Source: a virus. From it: a stretch of 64,000 nt of DNA. The stretch is from the UHGV virus genome UHGV-0229283, one strand, 5' to 3'. Below the pieces are notes generated by a model. It worked only from the letters and a program-made list of their open reading frames with translations, was not told the DNA's origin and made no database searches. Numbering within the stretch: the first letter of the stretch is position 1; each line of letters starts with the position of its first letter. This document shows positions 32,640-50,131 of this stretch, piece after piece. Both the position numbers and the translations under genes were made by a program.

Positions 32640-32998
32640 TCTCCAGCCTCCATTTGTTTCGGTGTCAGAGTCTTTACCTGATTATCATCAACAGGTGCAA
32701 ATCCAACAACAGGTTTATAACAGCGCTCTTTCTTTGCATCAAACACATAGAATGATGCCACAGCCTCTGGCTTTGCGCAAGTAGTATAATGGCGCTTATA
32801 CATTCCATAACCACCTAAGTAAGTCACTGCCCAGAACATTACCCCAAATATTACGGCTGAAAACACATAAGAGGCCACTTTTCCCTTCCAAGTAAGCCCT
32901 CCCGACAATAACCATCCTATGTAGGAAAACATAGCAAGCGGGATCAGGCTAGATACCCAATTGTGATTCATTGTAAACCATTCCCAGAATCCAATCAT
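32630..32998 (-). CDS. membrane protein (3 TM)
   Basis: 122 aa. Hydrophobic segments WVSSLIPLAMFSYIGWLL and VFSAVIFGVMFWAVTYLGGY. Confidence 0.35.
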   Translation of the reverse strand: MIGFWEWFTMNHNWVSSLIPLAMFSYIGWLLSGGLTWKGKVASYVFSAVIFGVMFWAVTYLGGYGMYKRHYTTCAKPEAVASFYVFDAKKERCYKPVVGFAPVDDNQVKTLTPKQMEAGEWL

Positions 32999-33687
32999 AT
33001 ATTACCCCCTCCAAAATTGGTTGTTTCACGTAAATTTGAAATGTCTTCCAGTATACCGTCTACAACTTCCGTAAAGCGTTGAATCACTCGCACATCCTTG
33101 TAGGGTTGTTTCTCATAACCAGTCAGCAAGCGAAATATGTTCCTGCACTTTTCTTTTTGCCATGCCAGATGGGCCAATTGCGGATTCTCATAGTAGCCAA
33201 GACTTTTATATTTATTCTCGACCATTATGTAGGCTCTGTATTTCATTCTTGATGAAACCCAGCTAACTCCCAGTGGTAGCTCTTTAATATTCTCTTTTTG
33301 GTGAGATAGTACAGAATTCAATGTTGATGGAACCAGAATGCAAGTGACAGGCGAGTACAGTTTACCATTCCCCAGTATGTCCTTGTCAAGTTGAAACTTT
33401 ACTTCACGTTCTTTAATGGGTAAGTCCAGCTCTTTCAGCCATATATCGTGTTGTTTTTGACTCTGCACCCAAAGTTTAAAAGCCATGAATGAGTGCCAAC
33501 TAGTATCCACAATACAACCCAAATAGGATGGATCACTTTTACCATAACAACGTTTCAACATACTCTTCCACAGAACAAAGTAAGGGCATTTTTTAGCGTG
33601 TACTGTCCTGCCTGCCACTCTTTTACCCGGTTCGGTAACATAGGGGGCGTCATTAACGCCCACCCCGTACACTAGTTTTCTAGCCAT
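32995..33687 (-). CDS. AP2-domain homing-endonuclease-like DNA-binding protein
   Basis: Start set at MARKLVYGVGVND with RBS GGAGAAAG. The YGVGVNDAPY...YFVLWKSMLKRCY block and the C-terminal LGYYENPQLAHLAW match the motifs of phage HNH-associated AP2 / homing-endonuclease-like proteins. No clear HNH catalytic motif is visible. Confidence 0.35.
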   Translation of the reverse strand: MARKLVYGVGVNDAPYVTEPGKRVAGRTVHAKKCPYFVLWKSMLKRCYGKSDPSYLGCIVDTSWHSFMAFKLWVQSQKQHDIWLKELDLPIKEREVKFQLDKDILGNGKLYSPVTCILVPSTLNSVLSHQKENIKELPLGVSWVSSRMKYRAYIMVENKYKSLGYYENPQLAHLAWQKEKCRNIFRLLTGYEKQPYKDVRVIQRFTEVVDGILEDISNLRETTNFGGGNI

Positions 33688-34384
33688 TCTTTCTCCATTT
33701 ATACCAACCATAAAGAGAGTTAAGCCAGAATGTGACCCACATAGCCAAAATTGCAGAACCAGCTCCTTGATGATGAATCGTAGCTTGTACCCACATAACA
33801 ATTGCAACAGTGTTCACCAGTAGCCAAATCAGCCATTGTTCTGCATAACGAACCATCATCAGGTAGGTTGCCAGAACCGACAGGATTGCTGTAGCAGAAT
33901 CGAGACCCGGCATACTCCCTTTCAGCAGGCTAACGAACTCGGCGTATAATCCGATAGTCACCAATGTCCCGATACCAACAATCCAGCGCTGTTTTGTGGT
34001 CAGATACTTCTTGATGACATCCGCACGTTCACCATCCGCAGAGACGGTTAACTTACGCGCCCAGATTACCCCACCAATGACCTGCATGGGGGTGAACAAC
34101 AGGGTGTACATAATCGTCTCACCGTACAACTTGTACGTGAAGGAGATATATGCATACAGCACCGTTGCCACAAAGCCCCAGTAATAACTGGAGAGCTTAC
34201 CTTTTGCCACCAGGATAGCTCCGATGATCCCGGTAACAGAAGAGATGAACTCTACTAACCCACCGCCCATAGTCAAGGAGACAATGGCGATCGATGCCGA
34301 GCAGATGAGGAGCCAAAGATATTCAAGTTTTGACCAGCCATAAAAGTCGGTCCACGCTGTCTTAATGTACAGATTTGTGTTCAT
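33680..34384 (-). CDS. pnuC: nicotinamide riboside transporter PnuC
   Basis: 234 aa polytopic membrane protein. The C-terminal AEQWLIWLLVNTVAIVMW aligns with E. coli PnuC ENWLLWVIINVISVV. YGWYKW is a W-rich PnuC signature. Confidence 0.65.
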   Translation of the reverse strand: MNTNLYIKTAWTDFYGWSKLEYLWLLICSASIAIVSLTMGGGLVEFISSVTGIIGAILVAKGKLSSYYWGFVATVLYAYISFTYKLYGETIMYTLLFTPMQVIGGVIWARKLTVSADGERADVIKKYLTTKQRWIVGIGTLVTIGLYAEFVSLLKGSMPGLDSATAILSVLATYLMMVRYAEQWLIWLLVNTVAIVMWVQATIHHQGAGSAILAMWVTFWLNSLYGWYKWRKNG

Positions 34385-34386
34385 GG

Positions 34387-34644
34387 TTATTCTCCTGTTA
34401 ATCGTTTAAGAAGCGCTTCGATTTTAGGATTCGCTGCGCCGTTACCGTATAACTTATACTTCAGATCCAACACTGCGTCAAGCAGTTCTGGTGCTGCTGC
34501 GATAAGATTTGCATCTTCAATACTATTAATCTCTGAACACACGTCGCTGTAAGATCGCCACCCGGAACCTACCTCAAGAGAGCCTGAGACAATGACCTTT
34601 ATTTCATCGTCATCATGAAATACTTCCCATGTATCTTTAGCCAT
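34387..34644 (-). CDS. hypothetical protein
   Basis: 85 aa, acidic. Confidence 0.3.
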   Translation of the reverse strand: MAKDTWEVFHDDDEIKVIVSGSLEVGSGWRSYSDVCSEINSIEDANLIAAAPELLDAVLDLKYKLYGNGAANPKIEALLKRLTGE

Positions 34645-34873
34645 TTTTGCGCCCCTTTTTCTTTTTATTTTTCATTTCTGACCGAACTTTAGTTTGCCAA
34701 GCCATTGCTTCGTCAACAGCATTCGGTCCGTCAAAAACTTGGTTCTTCTCATCTGACTTGAACACAAAATTAGTACCTTTGTTATCCATTGCCTGGAAAA
34801 CCCAGCCTGTCAGTGTCTCCTCGATGATCTTACCGCCGATCAGCAGACCATTACTCTTTGCATGAATTGCCAT
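34637..34873 (-). CDS. hypothetical protein
   Basis: Start set at MAIHAKSNG with RBS GGAGGG. 78 aa with a Lys-rich tail. Confidence 0.3.
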   Translation of the reverse strand: MAIHAKSNGLLIGGKIIEETLTGWVFQAMDNKGTNFVFKSDEKNQVFDGPNAVDEAMAWQTKVRSEMKNKKKKGRKNG

Positions 34874-34875
34874 TT

Positions 34876-35025
34876 TTAACCCTCCATTACAACTGGTAAG
34901 ACAGACCTGATCCCATCTCGCCATGCTAACCAACACATCACTTGTAGGTTTTCACGCTCCTCTGCATCTGGAAAAAGATGTGCGGGTGCGTTTTTATCAA
35001 ACCAGCCCATAAATTCTTTAGACAT
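34876..35025 (-). CDS. small hypothetical protein
   Basis: 49 aa from MSKEFMGWF with RBS AGAGGAG. Confidence 0.25.
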   Translation of the reverse strand: MSKEFMGWFDKNAPAHLFPDAEERENLQVMCWLAWRDGIRSVLPVVMEG

Positions 35026-35356
35026 TTTGACTCCTCTGTTTTGCCCATTCGATTGCCGCAAGTATCACATCACAGTGACATGCTACCTCTTTGTTCGGCT
35101 GTTTACAGAAGCATACAAGGTCTTTACCATCCAAGTCAAGCAAATCTTGAATAGTAATTTTCCCCGAACGTATCTGTTGCCATAACCATACACGGTATCG
35201 TTCAATGGTTGCTCCACGGGGTTCATCTTTCGACAACTTATATGGATTGGCAAATTTAGATTGCTTCAAGCCTAGATGGGGCATTGCTCGCCCCATGTAT
35301 TCAGCATTCTCAGGTATCACTTTACCGATGTGGTAAAAGTTGAGAACTTTAGCCAT
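35018..35356 (-). CDS. DUF4326-like phage protein
   Basis: 112 aa. FANPYK, RYRVWLW and the C-terminal LxGKDLVCFCKQP..EVACHCDVIL cysteine pattern match my recollection of DUF4326. Confidence 0.35.
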   Translation of the reverse strand: MAKVLNFYHIGKVIPENAEYMGRAMPHLGLKQSKFANPYKLSKDEPRGATIERYRVWLWQQIRSGKITIQDLLDLDGKDLVCFCKQPNKEVACHCDVILAAIEWAKQRSQNV

Positions 35357-35594
35357 TGACCAGTTCCGGATGTAGGCGACGGTACAACTCCTGAGTCAAC
35401 TCGCGAATCCAGATAACGATAGGGACTTGCAGATAAGTATCCAGCAGGTCAGAAGGGTCATCTGTCCCAGGTTCTACCAGCAACCAGTTTATAGCGTTAA
35501 CAATATGCTCATCAGACATGTGGCTAATTCGCATATCAAAACCCTCCTGGGTTTTCCAGACCAGGGTCGGCTTAGTTTGCTCCATCTTTATCAC
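35349..35594 (-). CDS. hypothetical protein
   Basis: 81 aa ORF. Confidence 0.3.
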   Translation of the reverse strand: MIKMEQTKPTLVWKTQEGFDMRISHMSDEHIVNAINWLLVEPGTDDPSDLLDTYLQVPIVIWIRELTQELYRRLHPELVNG

Positions 35595-35937
35595 CTTTCA
35601 GATATGCGATGATCCAGTCTGCCGCTTCTTCGAACCCCTCATAACCAAAGAATTTCCGGCGATTGAAATAGGTATCGTCCGTAGGGATGTTGGTTTGGAA
35701 ATTGAAGTCCCGTGTTGACCCATAGTACACAGTGATCTGGTCACTGTTACGGCATTCAGAGAATGACACTTGACGACAATTATCTTGCCCACCTGAGTAG
35801 TCCAACTTCATGATGGAGAAGCCCTGCTCACGGCAGTTCGCATAGGCCTGGAGGCCCTGGCCTAACTCTGGAGCTTTTTCAAGGACGAGCTTTAATACAC
35901 CAAACGCTTGGTACATACTTGAGTTTGTAACATCCAT
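35572..35937 (-). CDS. hypothetical protein
   Basis: 121 aa ORF. Confidence 0.3.
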   Translation of the reverse strand: MDVTNSSMYQAFGVLKLVLEKAPELGQGLQAYANCREQGFSIMKLDYSGGQDNCRQVSFSECRNSDQITVYYGSTRDFNFQTNIPTDDTYFNRRKFFGYEGFEEAADWIIAYLKGDKDGAN

Positions 35938-35938
35938 C

Positions 35939-37012
35939 TTATTCTCCTTTTATATTCAGCAATTTACGGACAGCTTCTTCGGCTTTCTGAGTACGTTCTT
36001 TGTAATCACTGCCGGAGATAACCACCACCTTGCTTGTATCGTAAGATGTCCTGATCATTGTGTCAAGCAAAGAATGTGTTTCTTTACGCTTTTCTGGCGT
36101 ATCCTGCAAGCGAAGAGGATCAGCAACCCACGGGACCTCTGGTGTTAGGAACAGGAATAGGTCGTAGAAGTTGTAGCTCTCTTCACGGCTCAGTGTGCGG
36201 AACAGAAGATCGGAGTAGTCGATCTTGTCTGCACAAATACCAGAGAAATGAGTGATCAGGTTTGTGGTGTCAGAGAACATAACCCCACAACCACCCCAAC
36301 CAGCTAACTCCATTTCCTTCAGGCGATGCTCCATTGCGATACGAAGATAGTCTCCACGAGACATTGCTAACTCACTGGAGTGGTATTCACGCTCACAGAT
36401 AAGCCTCCCGATCTCAGGAATCCAACCAGCACCGAAGGTATGCGCCAGATGTTTTGTCAGGGTTGTCTTGCCCGTACTCTCAACACCAATGATGGCAACC
36501 TTCTTCATGAAGCGCTTACGTGCAGGCCACGCTAGGTTGTAGAAGTTGTTGTACGGATCATTACGGATCATCGTGGCTGAGATAGGAACAGCTTTACGTT
36601 CTGCGTCGATAACTACATGCTTCGCTTCAGGGAAGAACTCACTGAAGTAAGACTCATACTCCGGCTCAGAAGAGAAAGCAAAATCGTACTTAACGAACGG
36701 TTGCTTTTCACGGATCAGTTTTGCATAGGCAGCACTGCCTTCAGGGTATCCTGGGATATTCGACTCATCAACGTAGTCAACCTTCACGTTGTCCAAGCCC
36801 TCATCGGCAATAACATCCAGCAGGTCACGATAGCGATCAGCAAGCCCCAGCTTTGGACGGACCCACTCTGGTTGTGCGTCAACAAACTTCTGGTCGTATG
36901 ACAGGAACAGGTACAGAGCACCAACCTGAGAAGCCGCCTGGCGAATGAATTCAATATGTCCGTTGGTCAGCGGTGCAAATTTTCCGAAGATAAGGCCACG
37001 GGTCATAGTCAT
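35939..37012 (-). CDS. nadR: bifunctional NMN adenylyltransferase / ribosylnicotinamide kinase (NadR-type, no HTH domain)
   Basis: The N-terminus GLIFGKFAPLTNGHIEFIRQA is the (H/T)xGH nucleotidyltransferase motif, compare E. coli NadR GVIFGKFYPLHTGHIYLIQRA. The C-terminal domain has the Walker A GVESTGKTTL, compare NadR ribosylnicotinamide kinase GGESSGKST. 357 aa. Confidence 0.75.
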   Translation of the reverse strand: MTMTRGLIFGKFAPLTNGHIEFIRQAASQVGALYLFLSYDQKFVDAQPEWVRPKLGLADRYRDLLDVIADEGLDNVKVDYVDESNIPGYPEGSAAYAKLIREKQPFVKYDFAFSSEPEYESYFSEFFPEAKHVVIDAERKAVPISATMIRNDPYNNFYNLAWPARKRFMKKVAIIGVESTGKTTLTKHLAHTFGAGWIPEIGRLICEREYHSSELAMSRGDYLRIAMEHRLKEMELAGWGGCGVMFSDTTNLITHFSGICADKIDYSDLLFRTLSREESYNFYDLFLFLTPEVPWVADPLRLQDTPEKRKETHSLLDTMIRTSYDTSKVVVISGSDYKERTQKAEEAVRKLLNIKGE

Positions 37013-37257
37013 TTGCTTTTCTCCATTGATTCAAGGGCAATGCTGTATAGAACTTGAGTCTTCTTCATTTTGGCAAGTTCCACTTCAAGCTCTGCGATTT
37101 TAATTTTCAATTCAAGGGTGTCGCGTTTCAGTAGGGACTTTGCCAGTTCACTATCAACGGACTCGTTAATATCATTCGGGTTTGCTTCAGGATAAAACTC
37201 TGTTGCTTGTGCAGAGCAAGAAAGCGCGAGCAGGGTGGCTAGGATAATCTTTTTCAT
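37009..37257 (-). CDS. small secreted lipoprotein with a coiled-coil region (Llp/Cor-like exclusion lipoprotein or o-spanin-like)
   Basis: 82 aa. Signal peptide MKKIILATLLALSC with a lipobox (LALS-C). A charged coiled-coil follows. RBS AGAGGAGA. Confidence 0.45.
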   Translation of the reverse strand: MKKIILATLLALSCSAQATEFYPEANPNDINESVDSELAKSLLKRDTLELKIKIAELEVELAKMKKTQVLYSIALESMEKSK

Positions 37258-38695: not shown

Positions 38696-38914
38696 TTAGT
38701 TTTTTAAGATGCCGCGCTCTTCAAGAATCGCGACTAATTGTGCTTCTGTTGCCCGGTAAGTGAAGGAGTGCAACATCTTCTTTGCAGTAATGTATGCACA
38801 CCCGAACTCTTTACACACTCTTTTGTAAGGATTCTCAACCTCTGGGGAAGAGAACCCTTCCAGACATGCAACAAGTCTATCAGTTACCGGGGTTGGTTGC
38901 AACCCCGTTTTCAT
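38696..38914 (-). CDS. hypothetical protein
   Basis: 72 aa ORF. Confidence 0.25.
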   Translation of the reverse strand: MKTGLQPTPVTDRLVACLEGFSSPEVENPYKRVCKEFGCAYITAKKMLHSFTYRATEAQLVAILEERGILKN

Positions 38915-40944
38915 CAGAATTTAATCTTCAGGGTGCGGTTGAAAGAACCAGTAACCTTCACAACCAACTCGTTACGCTGGGTAGACGAGAAGCCCAGGCC
39001 GCTCAGTTGATCAGTGGAGTGTTCAGCTTTGAGCTTGGAACCCAACACTTCGAACACTTTACGATGCTCATGCAGCTCGTCACGCAGATACTCATTATAG
39101 AAGCCACGAGTATCGTCAGGGTTAATGCAACCTTCCAGCATAAAGAAGTAGTGTTTGTTACCTTTGGTCTGACCATCCCAGAAGTTAGGAGAATTCAGCA
39201 CCAGAGAAACTTTCTGGAAGGTCTCGGTAGAGACGCCCCATACTTCTTTCGATTGCTTAGTATGCCCGATGCTGTCTACAATTTCAACACCTTTCGCACG
39301 AGAATACTTAAAGGTTACAACGGTCTGGCTCTTGCTATTACCCAAAGCTTGCGGGTATGCAAAGTTGAACACTTGGCCTTTGTATTCCATCTGTACTTCG
39401 AAGCCAACGCGATCAGTCATGCGCTTATTATAGTTGTTAACAACAACCTTGTAAACACCTTCCGTGATATTACGCTCATTTTCCCACGTAACGTTCTCAA
39501 CCGGATGGTGTGCGTCTGACTTGCCATAGGCATTCATATCCACATCCAGCGTACCCGTTGAGCGACCACGTTTGTTACCGAAGTAAATTTGACCGCCACC
39601 AGGCTCGAATACGTGCAGGTCGAGGTCATCACTGTTGTACCAGGACAACGAAACACGCAGGTCACCAGTCACGCTACCGCCAGCGGCTTTCACACGCTCC
39701 TTGATGGAGTCAGTTACTTCGCCATTATACGACCAGGAGAAGCCGTTATCCCATTTGAACAGGTTAGGAGCACCTGCGTTTGCCGGGGCAACCAGGCTCA
39801 TCAGGTTCGGTGTCAGACGACCTTCAACCAGCGCTTCGATAGTGTCCGCTTTCGGCAGAACGTTATTGATGAAATCCTCAATGCTGATCTCTTCTACTTT
39901 CGACAGTGACTTCGGCGCGTTTTTGGTTGACGCTGCCAGTTGCTCGAATACGTTCATCTGGGCCTTTGCAGAACGGTCAGCAAACAACACGTTGTTGATC
40001 GTCAGGTCAGAGGTCACCGCAAAGCGACGTGCCAGAGATTCAGTCAAGCCGAGGGCTTCAACCTTCTCTTGTGCTGCCTTGATCATGCCCGGAGTTACCA
40101 GAGCTGTAGTACGCTTGTAGTTGGTCCCTGAGACTTTGTCTTCAAAGGACTTCACTGCGGCTTCAAGATCAATACCTTCTGCCAGATCGCTCATCAGTGT
40201 ACCGATGACATCATTACGGAAGCGGCCCAGTTTACCCAGCGTTTCACTTTGTTTCCAGCAGAAGTTCATTCGCTGATCTTCCGGCGTTTTGTCGTATGCA
40301 CGTTTCGCCTTAATAAAGGCAGCAACAATGTGCTTTTTCTCATCACCACGGTACAGAGAGCCTTGGTTGATCAGGTCCATTACCGTTTCGGCAGAGTCCA
40401 TATCGATATCTTTCAGAGAACGTGCCAGCACAGTTGCGTTGTCACGGTACTCACCCAGGGCAGAAGGGATATCTTCACCACGTTTAACCAGTTCGCGAGG
40501 CAGGGCCTGATGGAAGTGGGTCCAGGTTTTGGTTTTCCCATTTTCCAGGAGAACTACGTTGCTCTCAGTACCAACGCGGCCTTCGAAGTGGAAGAAGCGA
40601 TCGCGGATCTCGGCGCTTTCAACACGCGCTTTCATCGCATCGGCAACAACTTGGTAGTAACCACCAACTTTAACGTCCCAAATAGAGACCAGCTTGCCGT
40701 TGTGAATCGCGACTACTCGGCCCAGAGTACGGATGTAGCTCTTGCAGCAGTTACAGTCATATTCACGGCGCTCTTTATACATCAGATTGGTGCCTTCCGG
40801 GAAAGAGTCGAGGTACAGATCGTACAGTTCATCTTTCGGTACATCGACCGTGTAAAGCGCACCCAGCGCTTGCATGACAGCGAACTGAGCTTTCAGAGCT
40901 TTTACGAAGTCAGCGTAAGGTACGGTTTCATATTTTGCGGTCAT
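38914..40944 (-). CDS. large conserved hypothetical protein (676 aa) of the early region
   Basis: Long ORF with a clean RBS. No motif I can confidently place. It is not NAMPT-like because it lacks the GYRG-type signature. Confidence 0.5.
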   Translation of the reverse strand: MTAKYETVPYADFVKALKAQFAVMQALGALYTVDVPKDELYDLYLDSFPEGTNLMYKERREYDCNCCKSYIRTLGRVVAIHNGKLVSIWDVKVGGYYQVVADAMKARVESAEIRDRFFHFEGRVGTESNVVLLENGKTKTWTHFHQALPRELVKRGEDIPSALGEYRDNATVLARSLKDIDMDSAETVMDLINQGSLYRGDEKKHIVAAFIKAKRAYDKTPEDQRMNFCWKQSETLGKLGRFRNDVIGTLMSDLAEGIDLEAAVKSFEDKVSGTNYKRTTALVTPGMIKAAQEKVEALGLTESLARRFAVTSDLTINNVLFADRSAKAQMNVFEQLAASTKNAPKSLSKVEEISIEDFINNVLPKADTIEALVEGRLTPNLMSLVAPANAGAPNLFKWDNGFSWSYNGEVTDSIKERVKAAGGSVTGDLRVSLSWYNSDDLDLHVFEPGGGQIYFGNKRGRSTGTLDVDMNAYGKSDAHHPVENVTWENERNITEGVYKVVVNNYNKRMTDRVGFEVQMEYKGQVFNFAYPQALGNSKSQTVVTFKYSRAKGVEIVDSIGHTKQSKEVWGVSTETFQKVSLVLNSPNFWDGQTKGNKHYFFMLEGCINPDDTRGFYNEYLRDELHEHRKVFEVLGSKLKAEHSTDQLSGLGFSSTQRNELVVKVTGSFNRTLKIKF

Positions 40945-47896: not shown

Positions 47897-48627
47897 TTAT
47901 TTGCCTCATAAACTGCAATTGCCAAAGACCTCGGGGTACAACTGCGTATGTTTTTTGTTTTCAAAGATTTTCCTCCGCATTTTTTCCATCCCGGATTATC
48001 CTTGTATAAGGATGGCAACGGCTTTTTCTCTGGGCCAATAAAGTTATTTCCCCACCAGAGGCAAGTCTTTTTCTTGTACTGGTCCCGTGGGGGATATATA
48101 TGGGGGTAGAGTGGATGAACGTCTATCAAAGGTAGCCAACCACCAAGATCACAAGGATCAAACATATAATCAGGTTTGCGATACATTGAAGAAAGAACAC
48201 CAACAGGGTTTTCAAAGGCCCAAGGGACATTGTATAAATTCCCAACCTTCTCGACCAATAAACAAAGTTCCATTGCTTCCTTCTGGAAGTTAGGGTTAGC
48301 TGCTCTTTTCTTAGCCCAATGACGTGAACCTGCATTGGTCAGGTGAGTACATTCCGGGAAACCAAAGACGATGTGAACATTGTCACCAACCATTTCTTTG
48401 ATCTCTTGAGCTTGTTGAACGGTCTTGTCGTGGAAGAACCACATCCCGACTTTAACAAGGTCACCCTCGCGGGTGACTCCTGGTGAATGTTGACCATCAA
48501 AAGTCCAAACTTCATAGCCAGCCTCTAACCAAGGACGGGCCATGACCGAAGTGTAATCATAAAGAATGATCACTTTCTTCTTCAAACGGCCTCCCTTAGT
48601 GGAAACTGACCCCTTGGTGATCGGCAT
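47893..48627 (-). CDS. DNA (cytosine-5)-methyltransferase-like protein with a degenerate SAM motif I
   Basis: FGFPECTHL resembles the PCQ motif and AFENPVGVL resembles the ENV motif. The expected FxGxGG site reads IILYDYTSVMARPW, with no glycines. Confidence 0.4.
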   Translation of the reverse strand: MPITKGSVSTKGGRLKKKVIILYDYTSVMARPWLEAGYEVWTFDGQHSPGVTREGDLVKVGMWFFHDKTVQQAQEIKEMVGDNVHIVFGFPECTHLTNAGSRHWAKKRAANPNFQKEAMELCLLVEKVGNLYNVPWAFENPVGVLSSMYRKPDYMFDPCDLGGWLPLIDVHPLYPHIYPPRDQYKKKTCLWWGNNFIGPEKKPLPSLYKDNPGWKKCGGKSLKTKNIRSCTPRSLAIAVYEANK

Positions 48628-48814
48628 TTGTTACCGTACCCGTCATGGAAATTGGAATAATTTTAACTAGGGTGTAGGTCAGATATCTAGCGCTTTCAGA
48701 TTGCCCTGCGATAGTATATCCTTCATCAAGATGTTCTGCCAACACTTTAGCCACATAATTTGGACCACTGTGGTTATTGAATTCGAATTCGACGACTTTA
48801 ACTTCGTGTTTCAT
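48596..48814 (-). CDS. hypothetical protein
   Basis: Start set at MKHEV, via a TAATG overlap after RBS GAGGAGGAG. Confidence 0.3.
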   Translation of the reverse strand: MKHEVKVVEFEFNNHSGPNYVAKVLAEHLDEGYTIAGQSESARYLTYTLVKIIPISMTGTVTNADHQGVSFH

Positions 48815-49098
48815 TAAAACTCCTCCTCTTCCTGGAAGCAACCTACAATTTCAAGATTGCGAATATACTCGCGTAAATGATGGTATAGGACATCATCTGG
48901 AATGTCAACGTAGATCTGTTTATCTCCAGAGAATACAGCATAATACTCCAAATCCTGGAAACCGTTGTAATCTACATCGCTTTCACGACTGTTACGGTCG
49001 CCTTCCATCACAGAATAAAGTGCTTCGACGGTGACGACACCCGCAGTAGGGTGGTCATAACTGAATTCGATCTCTACAGGAAGTGCGGCTTTACTCAT
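48814..49098 (-). CDS. hypothetical protein
   Basis: 94 aa acidic ORF. Confidence 0.3.
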   Translation of the reverse strand: MSKAALPVEIEFSYDHPTAGVVTVEALYSVMEGDRNSRESDVDYNGFQDLEYYAVFSGDKQIYVDIPDDVLYHHLREYIRNLEIVGCFQEEEEF

Positions 49099-49327: not shown

Positions 49328-49821
49328 TTAGACTCCAGTTCGGCCTTTAATTCAATATTCTGGTCAATCAGTGCCTCGATAAACTGAATTGCATGGACTG
49401 CTGCACTATGACAACCGTCATCAAACAACTTCCGGCTTACATCATTACGTAAAGCGGCTGCATCACCATGCAGGCGAGTTTCCATATAAGTGCTTATGGT
49501 ATTCCACGCGTTAGCACCAGAACTTAGATATTCCAAAACTGCCAGCACATTCTGAGGGCAGGCAGTCGCAATGTATGTTGCATCCATATCATTGCGCCAA
49601 GCCGAAAGATTACCTGTGTTCTCATGGCGCACAACCGGACCCATATTTCCGTCTGTCACAAACACTGTTTCCATGCCAGCATCTTCCGTTGAAAATGCAA
49701 CCATAGCATGACCATGTGAATCTATCCACCACTTACCCGGTGTTGCTTGACTTGCGATGCGTTTCAAATCATCAATAAGTTTACAAATATTTTCACGATG
49801 TTTCATCTTCTGCGCCTTCAT
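49324..49821 (-). CDS. hypothetical protein (weak resemblance to Ead/Ea22-family phage proteins)
   Basis: 165 aa. The PGKWWIDSHGH segment is recalled from Ead-like proteins. This is uncertain. Confidence 0.3.
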   Translation of the reverse strand: MKAQKMKHRENICKLIDDLKRIASQATPGKWWIDSHGHAMVAFSTEDAGMETVFVTDGNMGPVVRHENTGNLSAWRNDMDATYIATACPQNVLAVLEYLSSGANAWNTISTYMETRLHGDAAALRNDVSRKLFDDGCHSAAVHAIQFIEALIDQNIELKAELESK

Positions 49822-50131
49822 AACGAGTTAGGGTCAATTTAGTAACAGTCAGGCTCACACCTTCTGAAGTTTCTACCACAAAAGTATTGTGGACACCATC
49901 TAAAACTACGACGATGAAGTCACCAACCGCAGGCGGCAGATCCGCAAGTTTCAGGGCAACCACTGCCTCTGCGTATTCACCATCATTGATGACTCGTATA
50001 GCGATATCATGTCCAGGACCTTGTTCTGTGAAGTCAAATACCCGAACTTCATTTTCTGTGGTTTCATCCTCTTTGGCAAAGAGCCAGTTAATTAGACGTT
50101 TGAACATTCTTCGCCCTCTTGACAATTTCAT
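49793..50131 (-). CDS. hypothetical protein
   Basis: 112 aa ORF. Confidence 0.3.
   Translation of the reverse strand: MKLSRGRRMFKRLINWLFAKEDETTENEVRVFDFTEQGPGHDIAIRVINDGEYAEAVVALKLADLPPAVGDFIVVVLDGVHNTFVVETSEGVSLTVTKLTLTRYEGAEDETS

Follow-up and report, generated by a model that had tools for sequence, protein, structure and literature searches.

Genes for NadR-like enzymes in phages were catalogued by Iyer et al. 2022 (PMC9503650), and Osterman et al. 2024 pointed out that phage NadR usually shares an operon with PnuC and could represent "yet another pathway" by which phages make nicotinamide adenine dinucleotide (NAD+). The PnuC plus NadR route was named NARP3 by Yan et al. (Sci Adv, 12 Aug 2026; PMC13464706), who used a gene pair from Escherichia phage TrudiRoth, a T5-like Epseptimavirus. 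In this system, the PnuC protein Bas30_87 binds and imports nicotinamide riboside (NR), and Bas30_86, a NadR homologue without a helix-turn-helix (HTH) domain, converts NR to nicotinamide mononucleotide (NMN) and NMN to NAD+. Both proteins are required; they restore the NAD+ depleted by Sir2-HerA and counter DSR1 as well, and the rescue depends on NR with a low-micromolar half-maximal effective concentration. The same study provided crystal structures (9X6H and 9X6F) and a BLAST survey of 124 operons, about 1% from Klebsiella phages (PMC13464706). Here we describe a nadR-like gene and a pnuC gene on a 64,000-nucleotide stretch of UHGV virus genome UHGV-0229283 (the window), which likely give a virulent Klebsiella myovirus a NARP3-type pathway for NAD+ reconstitution.

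The two genes and the region between them are as follows.
35939-37012, minus strand: nadR-like gene, 357 aa, with an N-terminal NMN adenylyltransferase (NMNAT) domain and a C-terminal P-loop ribosylnicotinamide kinase (RNK) domain.
33680-34384, minus strand: pnuC, 234 aa, a PnuC-family NR transporter.
34387-35937, minus strand: spacer block of six open reading frames (ORFs) between nadR and pnuC.
Both ORFs are present at exactly the coordinates given in a preliminary description of this DNA, which had also placed them about 1.5 kb apart in one minus-strand cluster; the distance from the nadR stop to the pnuC start is 1,554 nt, within a tightly packed block. In a megablast comparison, the phage was 95-97% identical to KB57, KpS8, KpS11, Mydo, and Iguana_ER37, and its sequence assigns it to the virulent Klebsiella myoviruses of the genus Mydovirus (Vequintavirinae).

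In the profile search that the preliminary description had proposed, the NadR-like protein matched the Pfam domains CTP_transf_like (residues 8-151, E=1.5e-5) and AAA_28 (residues 171-340, E=1.9e-21), both above their cutoffs, and the PHROG family phrog_3462, "nicotinamide-nucleotide adenylyltransferase" (E=1.6e-139). Full-length sequence matches were obtained to four solved NadR-type structures; PDB matches included 9x6f (Bas30_86, E=1.7e-58), 8x7f (E. coli NadR, E=1e-29), and 1lw7 (H. influenzae NadR, E=3e-26). The NMNAT domain contains GKFAPLTNGH at residues 10-19 and ISATMIR at residues 144-150, and the RNK domain contains the Walker A motif GVESTGKT at residues 176-183 and MFSD at residues 245-248. 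The kinase domain with a Walker A motif had been claimed before and is borne out by GVESTGKT and the AAA_28 match. The nucleotidyltransferase domain said to carry HxGH is also present; its motif, however, reads TNGH and not literally HxGH. Because Bas30_86, which is active by experiment, has TRGH at the same place, TNGH is an accepted variant of the T/HxGH motif and does not inactivate the enzyme's signature. No HTH domain was found in the NadR-like protein, as had been stated: the match to NF005988, a model of full-length NadR, starts only at profile position 65 of 411, so that positions 1-64 are missing, and the gene upstream of this HTH-less ORF encodes a separate 82-aa protein. Because it has no HTH domain, the enzyme is not expected to act as a transcriptional repressor.

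For a residue-level comparison with the characterised pair, Bas30 was represented by Salmonella phage S114, whose NadR matches the 9x6f chain at 100% identity over 340 aa; the PnuC of S114, whose gene starts 1 nt after nadR, served as a proxy for Bas30_87. The NadR-like protein of the window is 36% identical to Bas30_86, and 12 of the 14 positions assigned to the NMNAT site in the NARP3 paper are identical (K10, F11, S37, E80, P84, Y86, G89, Y93, F110, S112, V139, and I141 in Bas30_86 numbering), as are 4 of 6 positions of the RNK site (K163, K168, E230, and D275). Two further positions show conservative changes, D115 to E (E118 in the window) and R167 to K. The residues of Bas30_86 that were tested by mutagenesis (K10/F11, S37, E80/P84/G89, F110, S112/D115, V139/I141, E230, and D275) are all identical in the window protein except D115. 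The alignment of the nadR copy of Iguana_ER37 (L005:22110-23179), a 97% identical relative, falls into two reading frames that overlap by 4 nt near codon 328, which suggests a frameshift or a sequencing error affecting its last ~30 codons; the window copy is intact.

The predicted transporter matched Pfam PF04973 (NMN_transporter) with E=1e-36 and 127 bits (cutoff 27.3) in the search proposed earlier, passed the equivalog model TIGR01528, "nicotinamide riboside transporter PnuC" (111 bits, cutoff 42.45), and had phrog_1880 as its best PHROG family (E=8e-76). Its score against the enterobacterial PnuC subfamily model NF011926 was 50.7 bits (cutoff 335). About 7-8 hydrophobic helices are present, and residues 14-232 align with the N. 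mucosa PnuC structure 4qtn at 34% identity without gaps over 219 residues (E=3.5e-39), with an EQWxxW motif common to the two proteins. Identity to the Bas30_87 proxy is 39%; the NR-binding residues Q94 and N180 of Bas30_87 correspond to Q101 and N191 in the window PnuC, and both are also kept in N. mucosa PnuC. Because solved structures, four of NadR and one of PnuC, are matched over the full length, we regard the folds of both proteins as settled.

Homologues of both genes were sought in a collection of 50,697 phage records, of which 725-792 contain NadR-like genes and 780 contain PnuC genes. By host genus, the numbers for the two genes were almost equal; NadR and PnuC homologues, respectively, numbered 355 and 357 in phages of Vibrio, 174 and 178 in Salmonella, 47 and 47 in Klebsiella, 38 and 39 in Escherichia, 24 and 24 in Bacillus, 18 and 18 in Lactobacillus, 14 and 14 in Erwinia, and 15 and 15 in Prevotella. 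Identity to the window proteins (NadR/PnuC) was 61%/84% in Seunavirus, 44%/61% in an Erwinia jumbo phage, and 36%/37-39% in T5-like phages. Because the divergence of both proteins rises in the same order of lineages, the data are consistent with inheritance of nadR and pnuC as a pair. A NadR homologue also occurs in 27 Enterococcus phage records, and Enterococcus is not among the top PnuC-holding genera; these phages may use NadR alone, together with a host transporter or a different precursor.

Strong purifying selection acts on nadR and pnuC, with dN/dS values of 0.03-0.08 overall (nadR, 0.07-0.08 versus KpS11 and KP12; pnuC, 0.04 versus KP12 and 0.03 versus SSE121), and their split order is shared by Mydovirus and Seunavirus even though synonymous sites have diverged to saturation. 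A scan for host capture covered one genome per species for 185,579 bacterial and archaeal species, and no close relative of the NadR-like protein was found among them. The flanking genes, for which the preliminary description had proposed a check for host genes, are all phage genes and give no sign of recent capture. Recent acquisition from a host was rejected on these two grounds and on the weak scores against the enterobacterial PnuC and NadR models, and the genes appear to belong to an old phage lineage.

The six ORFs of the spacer, all on the minus strand, are as follows.
35572-35937, minus strand: orf121.
35349-35594, minus strand: orf81.
35018-35356, minus strand: DUF4326 protein, 112 aa (Pfam PF14216, E=2.4e-18; phrog_24867).
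34876-35061, minus strand: orf61.
34637-34873/34936, minus strand: orf78/99.
34387-34644, minus strand: orf85.
From nadR to pnuC, every junction is an overlap or a gap of no more than 2 nt on the same strand, motifs resembling Shine-Dalgarno sequences precede both nadR and pnuC, and a terminator scan found no credible minus-strand terminator with a T-run between the two genes. Because of the shared strand, the tight packing, and the lack of a credible terminator, co-transcription from nadR through pnuC is plausible, and the spacer ORFs are probably transcribed together with the two genes.

The order nadR, orf121, orf81, DUF4326, orf61, ..., pnuC, orf122 is kept in other Mydovirus phages and in the distant Seunavirus SSE121, in which the NadR, DUF4326, and PnuC proteins are 61, 65, and 84% identical to those of the window. 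The spacer itself, compared between the window (34387-35937) and L001:12555-14554, L004:3819-5553, and L008:7079-9121, is a hotspot of small-ORF turnover. Its length is ~1.99 kb in KpS11 and ~2.05 kb in SSE121; in KpS11 and KP12, nadR is followed by an extra 282-nt ORF, and a 136-aa ORF (~40% identity match) takes the place of the 81-aa ORF of the window; SSE121 has yet other inserts. In four other lineages, nadR and pnuC touch: the genes are separated by 1 nt in S114 (Salmonella) and by 15 nt in ICP1 (Vibrio) and overlap by 4 nt in AhSzq-1 (Aeromonas) and by 20 nt in the Erwinia jumbo phage pEa_SNUABM_47. In Bacillus phage Thrax2, the order of pnuC and nadR is reversed, with one gene between them. 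Because nadR and pnuC diverge in the same order across lineages, the arrangement fits an ancestral adjacent pair that was later split by insertion of small ORFs in Vequintavirinae.

Apart from the DUF4326 protein, the spacer ORFs had no Pfam matches and no PDB sequence matches at E<=1 beyond noise, and the proposal that they are known anti-defence proteins was rejected on these results. As members of the pathway, the spacer ORFs are candidates only.

By analogy with the characterised pair, PnuC would insert in the inner membrane and take up external NR by facilitated diffusion during infection. The C-terminal P-loop kinase domain of the NadR-like enzyme would then phosphorylate NR with ATP, trapping the resulting NMN in the cell, and the N-terminal T/HxGH nucleotidyltransferase domain would combine NMN and ATP to form NAD+. 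Compared with bacterial NadR, the enzyme would be unregulated and purely catalytic, exerting no transcriptional repression, and the resulting host-independent supply of NAD+ could keep replication going when NADases (Sir2-HerA, DSR, Thoeris ThsA, or SEFIR-type) drain the pool. For the homologous pair, transport of NR, the two reactions of the enzyme, and a rescue from Sir2-HerA and DSR1 that depends on NR are established (PMC13464706). The route from NR to NAD+ by import, phosphorylation, and adenylylation that the preliminary description proposed is supported by this demonstrated mechanism of Bas30_87 and Bas30_86, by the full-length alignments, and by the retention of nearly all tested residues, and the biochemical pathway of the window pair is very probably intact. 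The same description had seen in the pair a distinct NR-based solution that requires a transporter; the NR route stands and its novelty does not, as the route was hypothesised in 2024 and shown in 2026 as NARP3. Co-expression of nadR and pnuC despite the 1.55-kb spacer, a counter-defence role in this phage, and defence evasion rather than general NAD+ provisioning as the selected benefit are what we infer from the comparison with the Bas30 system.

Several observations weigh against assigning the pair to a NARP3-type counter-defence pathway. The characterised proteins are only 36 and 39% identical to those of the window, and the NARP3 experiments concern the Bas30 lineage and not Mydovirus. 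Two changes in the NadR-like protein are non-conservative: Bas30_86 W90, the aromatic residue said to stabilise NMN, is S93 in the window, and D164 is R167 (W90 was named as a structural residue without a mutation test; PMC13464706). The protein also misses the NadR equivalog cutoffs (163 versus 201 bits for NF005988 and 176 versus 341 bits for TIGR01526). In the transporter, N45, an NR-binding residue of Bas30_87, is changed non-conservatively to G52, though N. mucosa PnuC has Gly there too. At the level of the locus, the genes are kept apart by a spacer of 1,554 nt with six small ORFs, unlike those of the defining "two-gene operon", the number of promoter-like sites is not above expectation (19 versus 14.4±3.6 in shuffled sequence), and a promoter-like 10/12 match lies near the 3' end of nadR. 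Close relatives also contain a NARP1-like pair and a Sir2-family gene, so the NR route could be redundant for evasion, or it could serve the phage's own consumption of NAD+.

These additional NAD-related genes were found in Iguana_ER37. An adjacent pair of Prs-like and NAMPT-like genes at L011:12908-15455 has a NARP1-type layout, and a Sir2-family gene annotated as "NAD-dependent deacetylase" lies at L011:20326-21102 beside an ATP-dependent DNA ligase gene; Proteus phage Mydo has the NAMPT-like protein at 100% identity. The adjacent pair is annotated as "ribose-phosphate pyrophosphokinase" and "nicotinamide phosphoribosyl transferase", labels that have been shown to hide NARP1 (Osterman et al. 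2024). The Prs-like, NAMPT-like, and Sir2 homologues were sought in the 64,000-nt window with tblastn and were all missing, which removes them as other NAD genes of this stretch. The lineage as a whole probably carries two NAD+ reconstitution routes and an NAD+-using enzyme of its own.

The chief alternative is that the pair serves as an auxiliary metabolic module and raises NAD+ for the needs of the phage regardless of host defence, with evasion at most a side benefit; the demand would come from a large, fast-replicating genome and from the Sir2-family NAD+-consuming enzyme of the relatives. We consider this unlikely, although it draws on several features of the locus. The genes lie in an early/replication block and not in a recognisable anti-defence island, the relatives encode the Sir2-family protein and the second NAD-related pair elsewhere, and in surveys phage NadR, NadV, and NadM appear as NAD+ synthesis genes that medium and jumbo phages commonly carry (PMC9503650 and PMC11662467). 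However, the measurable phenotype of the homologous Bas30 pair is rescue from Sir2-HerA and DSR1, and no demand from an NAD+-dependent ligase is evident. Such a ligase was rejected as a consumer of NAD+, as no Pfam ligase domain was found in the small ORFs that carry the label "DNA ligase" and the ligase of the relatives is annotated as ATP-dependent. Provisioning and defence evasion are not mutually exclusive. The small ORFs concerned lie on the minus strand at 48596-48841 and 49793-50131, and the label, given to their counterparts in relatives on the basis of PHROG, appears to be an annotation artefact.

The wider Pnu family is reported to include thiamine, riboflavin, and deoxynucleoside carriers, and the transporter and kinase might act on another nucleoside or vitamin and make no NAD+ from NR. 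This would agree with scores that miss the NadR equivalog cutoffs and fall far short of the enterobacterial PnuC subfamily cutoff, with the change of 2 of the 4 NR contacts of N. mucosa PnuC (Q171 to T173 and Y217 to F219), and with the Ser at the position of Bas30_86 W90. The PnuC protein nevertheless passes the TIGR01528 equivalog (111 versus 42.45) and has the Gln and the Asn common to both characterised NR transporters, 12 of 14 residues at the NMN/NAD+ site, together with E230 and D275, which are essential in the RNK site, are the same as in an enzyme that uses NR, NMN, and NAD+, and the best PHROG families are PnuC and NMNAT families; these data make a different substrate very improbable. 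We attach almost no weight to the further idea that the genes are left over from an ancestral operon split by small-ORF insertion and are no longer used together. The characterised operon is indeed adjacent, whereas 1.55 kb and six ORFs of a content that varies among relatives intervene here, and nadR of Iguana_ER37 has its apparent frameshift, but dN/dS values of 0.03-0.08, two intact ORFs with all motifs present, and the retention of the split order from Mydovirus to Seunavirus across saturated synonymous divergence argue against non-functional hitch-hikers. A NARP3-type pathway for NAD+ reconstitution is the reading that we prefer.

The DUF4326 protein is the one product of the spacer with a recognised domain. 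DUF4326 has been described as a clade within the rhodanese-phosphatase superfamily that is often fused to Macro, NADAR, or SLOG domains and is predicted to process the terminal phosphates of breakdown products of ADP-ribose (ADPr) (Iyer et al. 2022, from Aravind's group; PMC9503650). DUF4326 homologues were present in 582 phage records, many of them without nadR or pnuC; in the phi92-like phage JohannJBalmer, for instance, DUF4326 and an orf61 homologue lie in an array of small ORFs, and the 10.3-kb stretch around them contains neither nadR nor pnuC. A dedicated role as third component of the pathway is unsupported by this distribution, and DUF4326 may be tied to NAD/ADPr biology with no specific link to nadR and pnuC. 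Phage annotation pipelines name this gene "NrdA-like ribonucleotide reductase", apparently after the name of its PHROG family (phrog_24867); this label is implausible because the protein has 112 aa and DUF4326 is its only Pfam match. An extended Vequintavirinae module, in which DUF4326 above all, and possibly orf121 and orf61, would cooperate with the NARP3 pair and, together with the NARP1-like pair and Sir2, provide a layered counter-defence, is a doubtful proposition to which we give little credence. If it were true, the spacer proteins might process NADase products or signalling nucleotides, and the phage lineage would have a layered, multi-route NAD+/ADPr counter-defence that includes the NARP1-like pair and the Sir2-family gene.

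Other features around the cluster are as follows.
37009-37257, minus strand: 82-aa ORF with a 4-nt overlap with the nadR start; phrog_16511.
38914-40944, minus strand: 676-aa protein upstream of the cluster; phrog_1735, E=4e-298.
32995-33687, minus strand: HNH homing-endonuclease ORF; phrog_953, E=2.5e-74.
The long minus-strand early/replication block, in the order rIIA/B, helicase, primase-helicase, DNA polymerase, 676-aa protein, nadR, pnuC, and single-stranded DNA-binding protein, converges on plus-strand tail-fibre genes. Both genes of the pair have been annotated in the Mydovirus lineage since the KB57 record KT934943, and the GenBank records of several relatives already use the labels "PnuC-like nicotinamide mononucleotide transporter" and "(NadR-type) nicotinamide-nucleotide adenylyltransferase". 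The 82-aa protein is kept at 98-100% identity across Mydovirus and has a signal-peptide-like N terminus (MKKIILATLLALSCSAQA) followed by a charged, probably helical stretch. The 676-aa protein is strongly kept among phages and is called a "DUF2135" or "SAP DNA-binding domain" protein in relatives; a Pfam search of it at E<=0.01 gave no match.

At the other end of the cluster, the HNH endonuclease ORF begins 1 nt inside the last codon of pnuC. This ORF is missing from most relatives, with which megablast identity starts only at window position ~33833, and KP12 retains a 31-aa remnant of its 3' end that is 100% identical. Compared with PnuC of KpS11, the first 179 aa of the window protein are 100% identical and the last 55 aa only 62% (codons ~180-234, window ~33680-33845). 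This sharp mosaic boundary in pnuC looks like a co-conversion tract left by homing of the endonuclease.

The conceptual gain from this locus is small, since an NR-based NAD+ route of phages is already a published and structurally characterised anti-defence pathway. NARP3-like pairs nevertheless appear to be far commoner than the 124 reported operons, by several-fold in the phage collection used here, and their holders include ICP1-type Vibrio phages, Klebsiella Mydovirus, phages of Bacillus and Lactobacillus, Erwinia jumbo phages, and Prevotella Lak megaphages. The window pair is probably outside the 124 operons; Klebsiella phages made up ~1% of that survey, versus 47-48 Klebsiella phage records found here. 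Because an entire subfamily keeps nadR and pnuC split, adjacency is an unreliable criterion in searches for such systems. Candidates for Klebsiella phage therapy include Mydovirus phages, whose close relatives carry the NR route and, elsewhere in the genome, the NARP1-like pair; two NAD+ routes would bear on predicting how far these phages withstand the Sir2-HerA, DSR, and Thoeris-type defences of clinical Klebsiella strains.

Among the known systems, NARP1 (Adps plus Namat; Osterman et al. 2024) is likewise a phage pathway of NAD+ reconstitution against NAD+ depletion but uses unrelated enzymes and substrates (ADP-ribose and nicotinamide). NARP2 (Nampt plus a bifunctional Nmnat/Nudix; for example, NadV/NatV of Vibrio phage KVP40; Osterman et al. 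2024) shares with the window pair the proposed purpose and the end step, adenylylation of NMN to NAD+; it starts, however, from nicotinamide and phosphoribosyl pyrophosphate without a transporter, and the partner fused to its NMNAT is Nudix and not an NR kinase. The bacterial NR salvage system (PnuC plus trifunctional NadR in E. coli, Salmonella, and H. influenzae; 8X7F, 1LW7, and 4QTN) has the same chemistry and, by full-length alignment, the same folds. It differs in the HTH repressor domain of NadR, which the window protein lacks; the window proteins fall below NCBIfam equivalog cutoffs for NadR and lie far from the enterobacterial PnuC subfamily (50.7 versus 335 bits), and in E. coli nadR and pnuC are at unlinked loci (PMC13464706).

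NARP3 is the closest described system. It has in common with the window pair the two protein families, the HTH-less NMNAT plus RNK architecture, the TxGH variant motif, an identical ISATMIR, nearly all mutationally tested residues, the position of nadR upstream of pnuC on the coding strand, and enterobacterial hosts. The two differ in identity (only 36% for NadR and 39% for PnuC), in phage type (a Vequintavirinae myovirus versus a Demerecviridae siphovirus), in three residues (W90 to Ser, D164 to Arg, and PnuC N45 to Gly in the window), and in spacing, with 1,554 nt and six small ORFs in the window versus a 1-nt gap and a dedicated promoter in NARP3. On this comparison of sequences, the pair is a divergent copy of NARP3 with a split arrangement and represents a known kind of system rather than a discovery.

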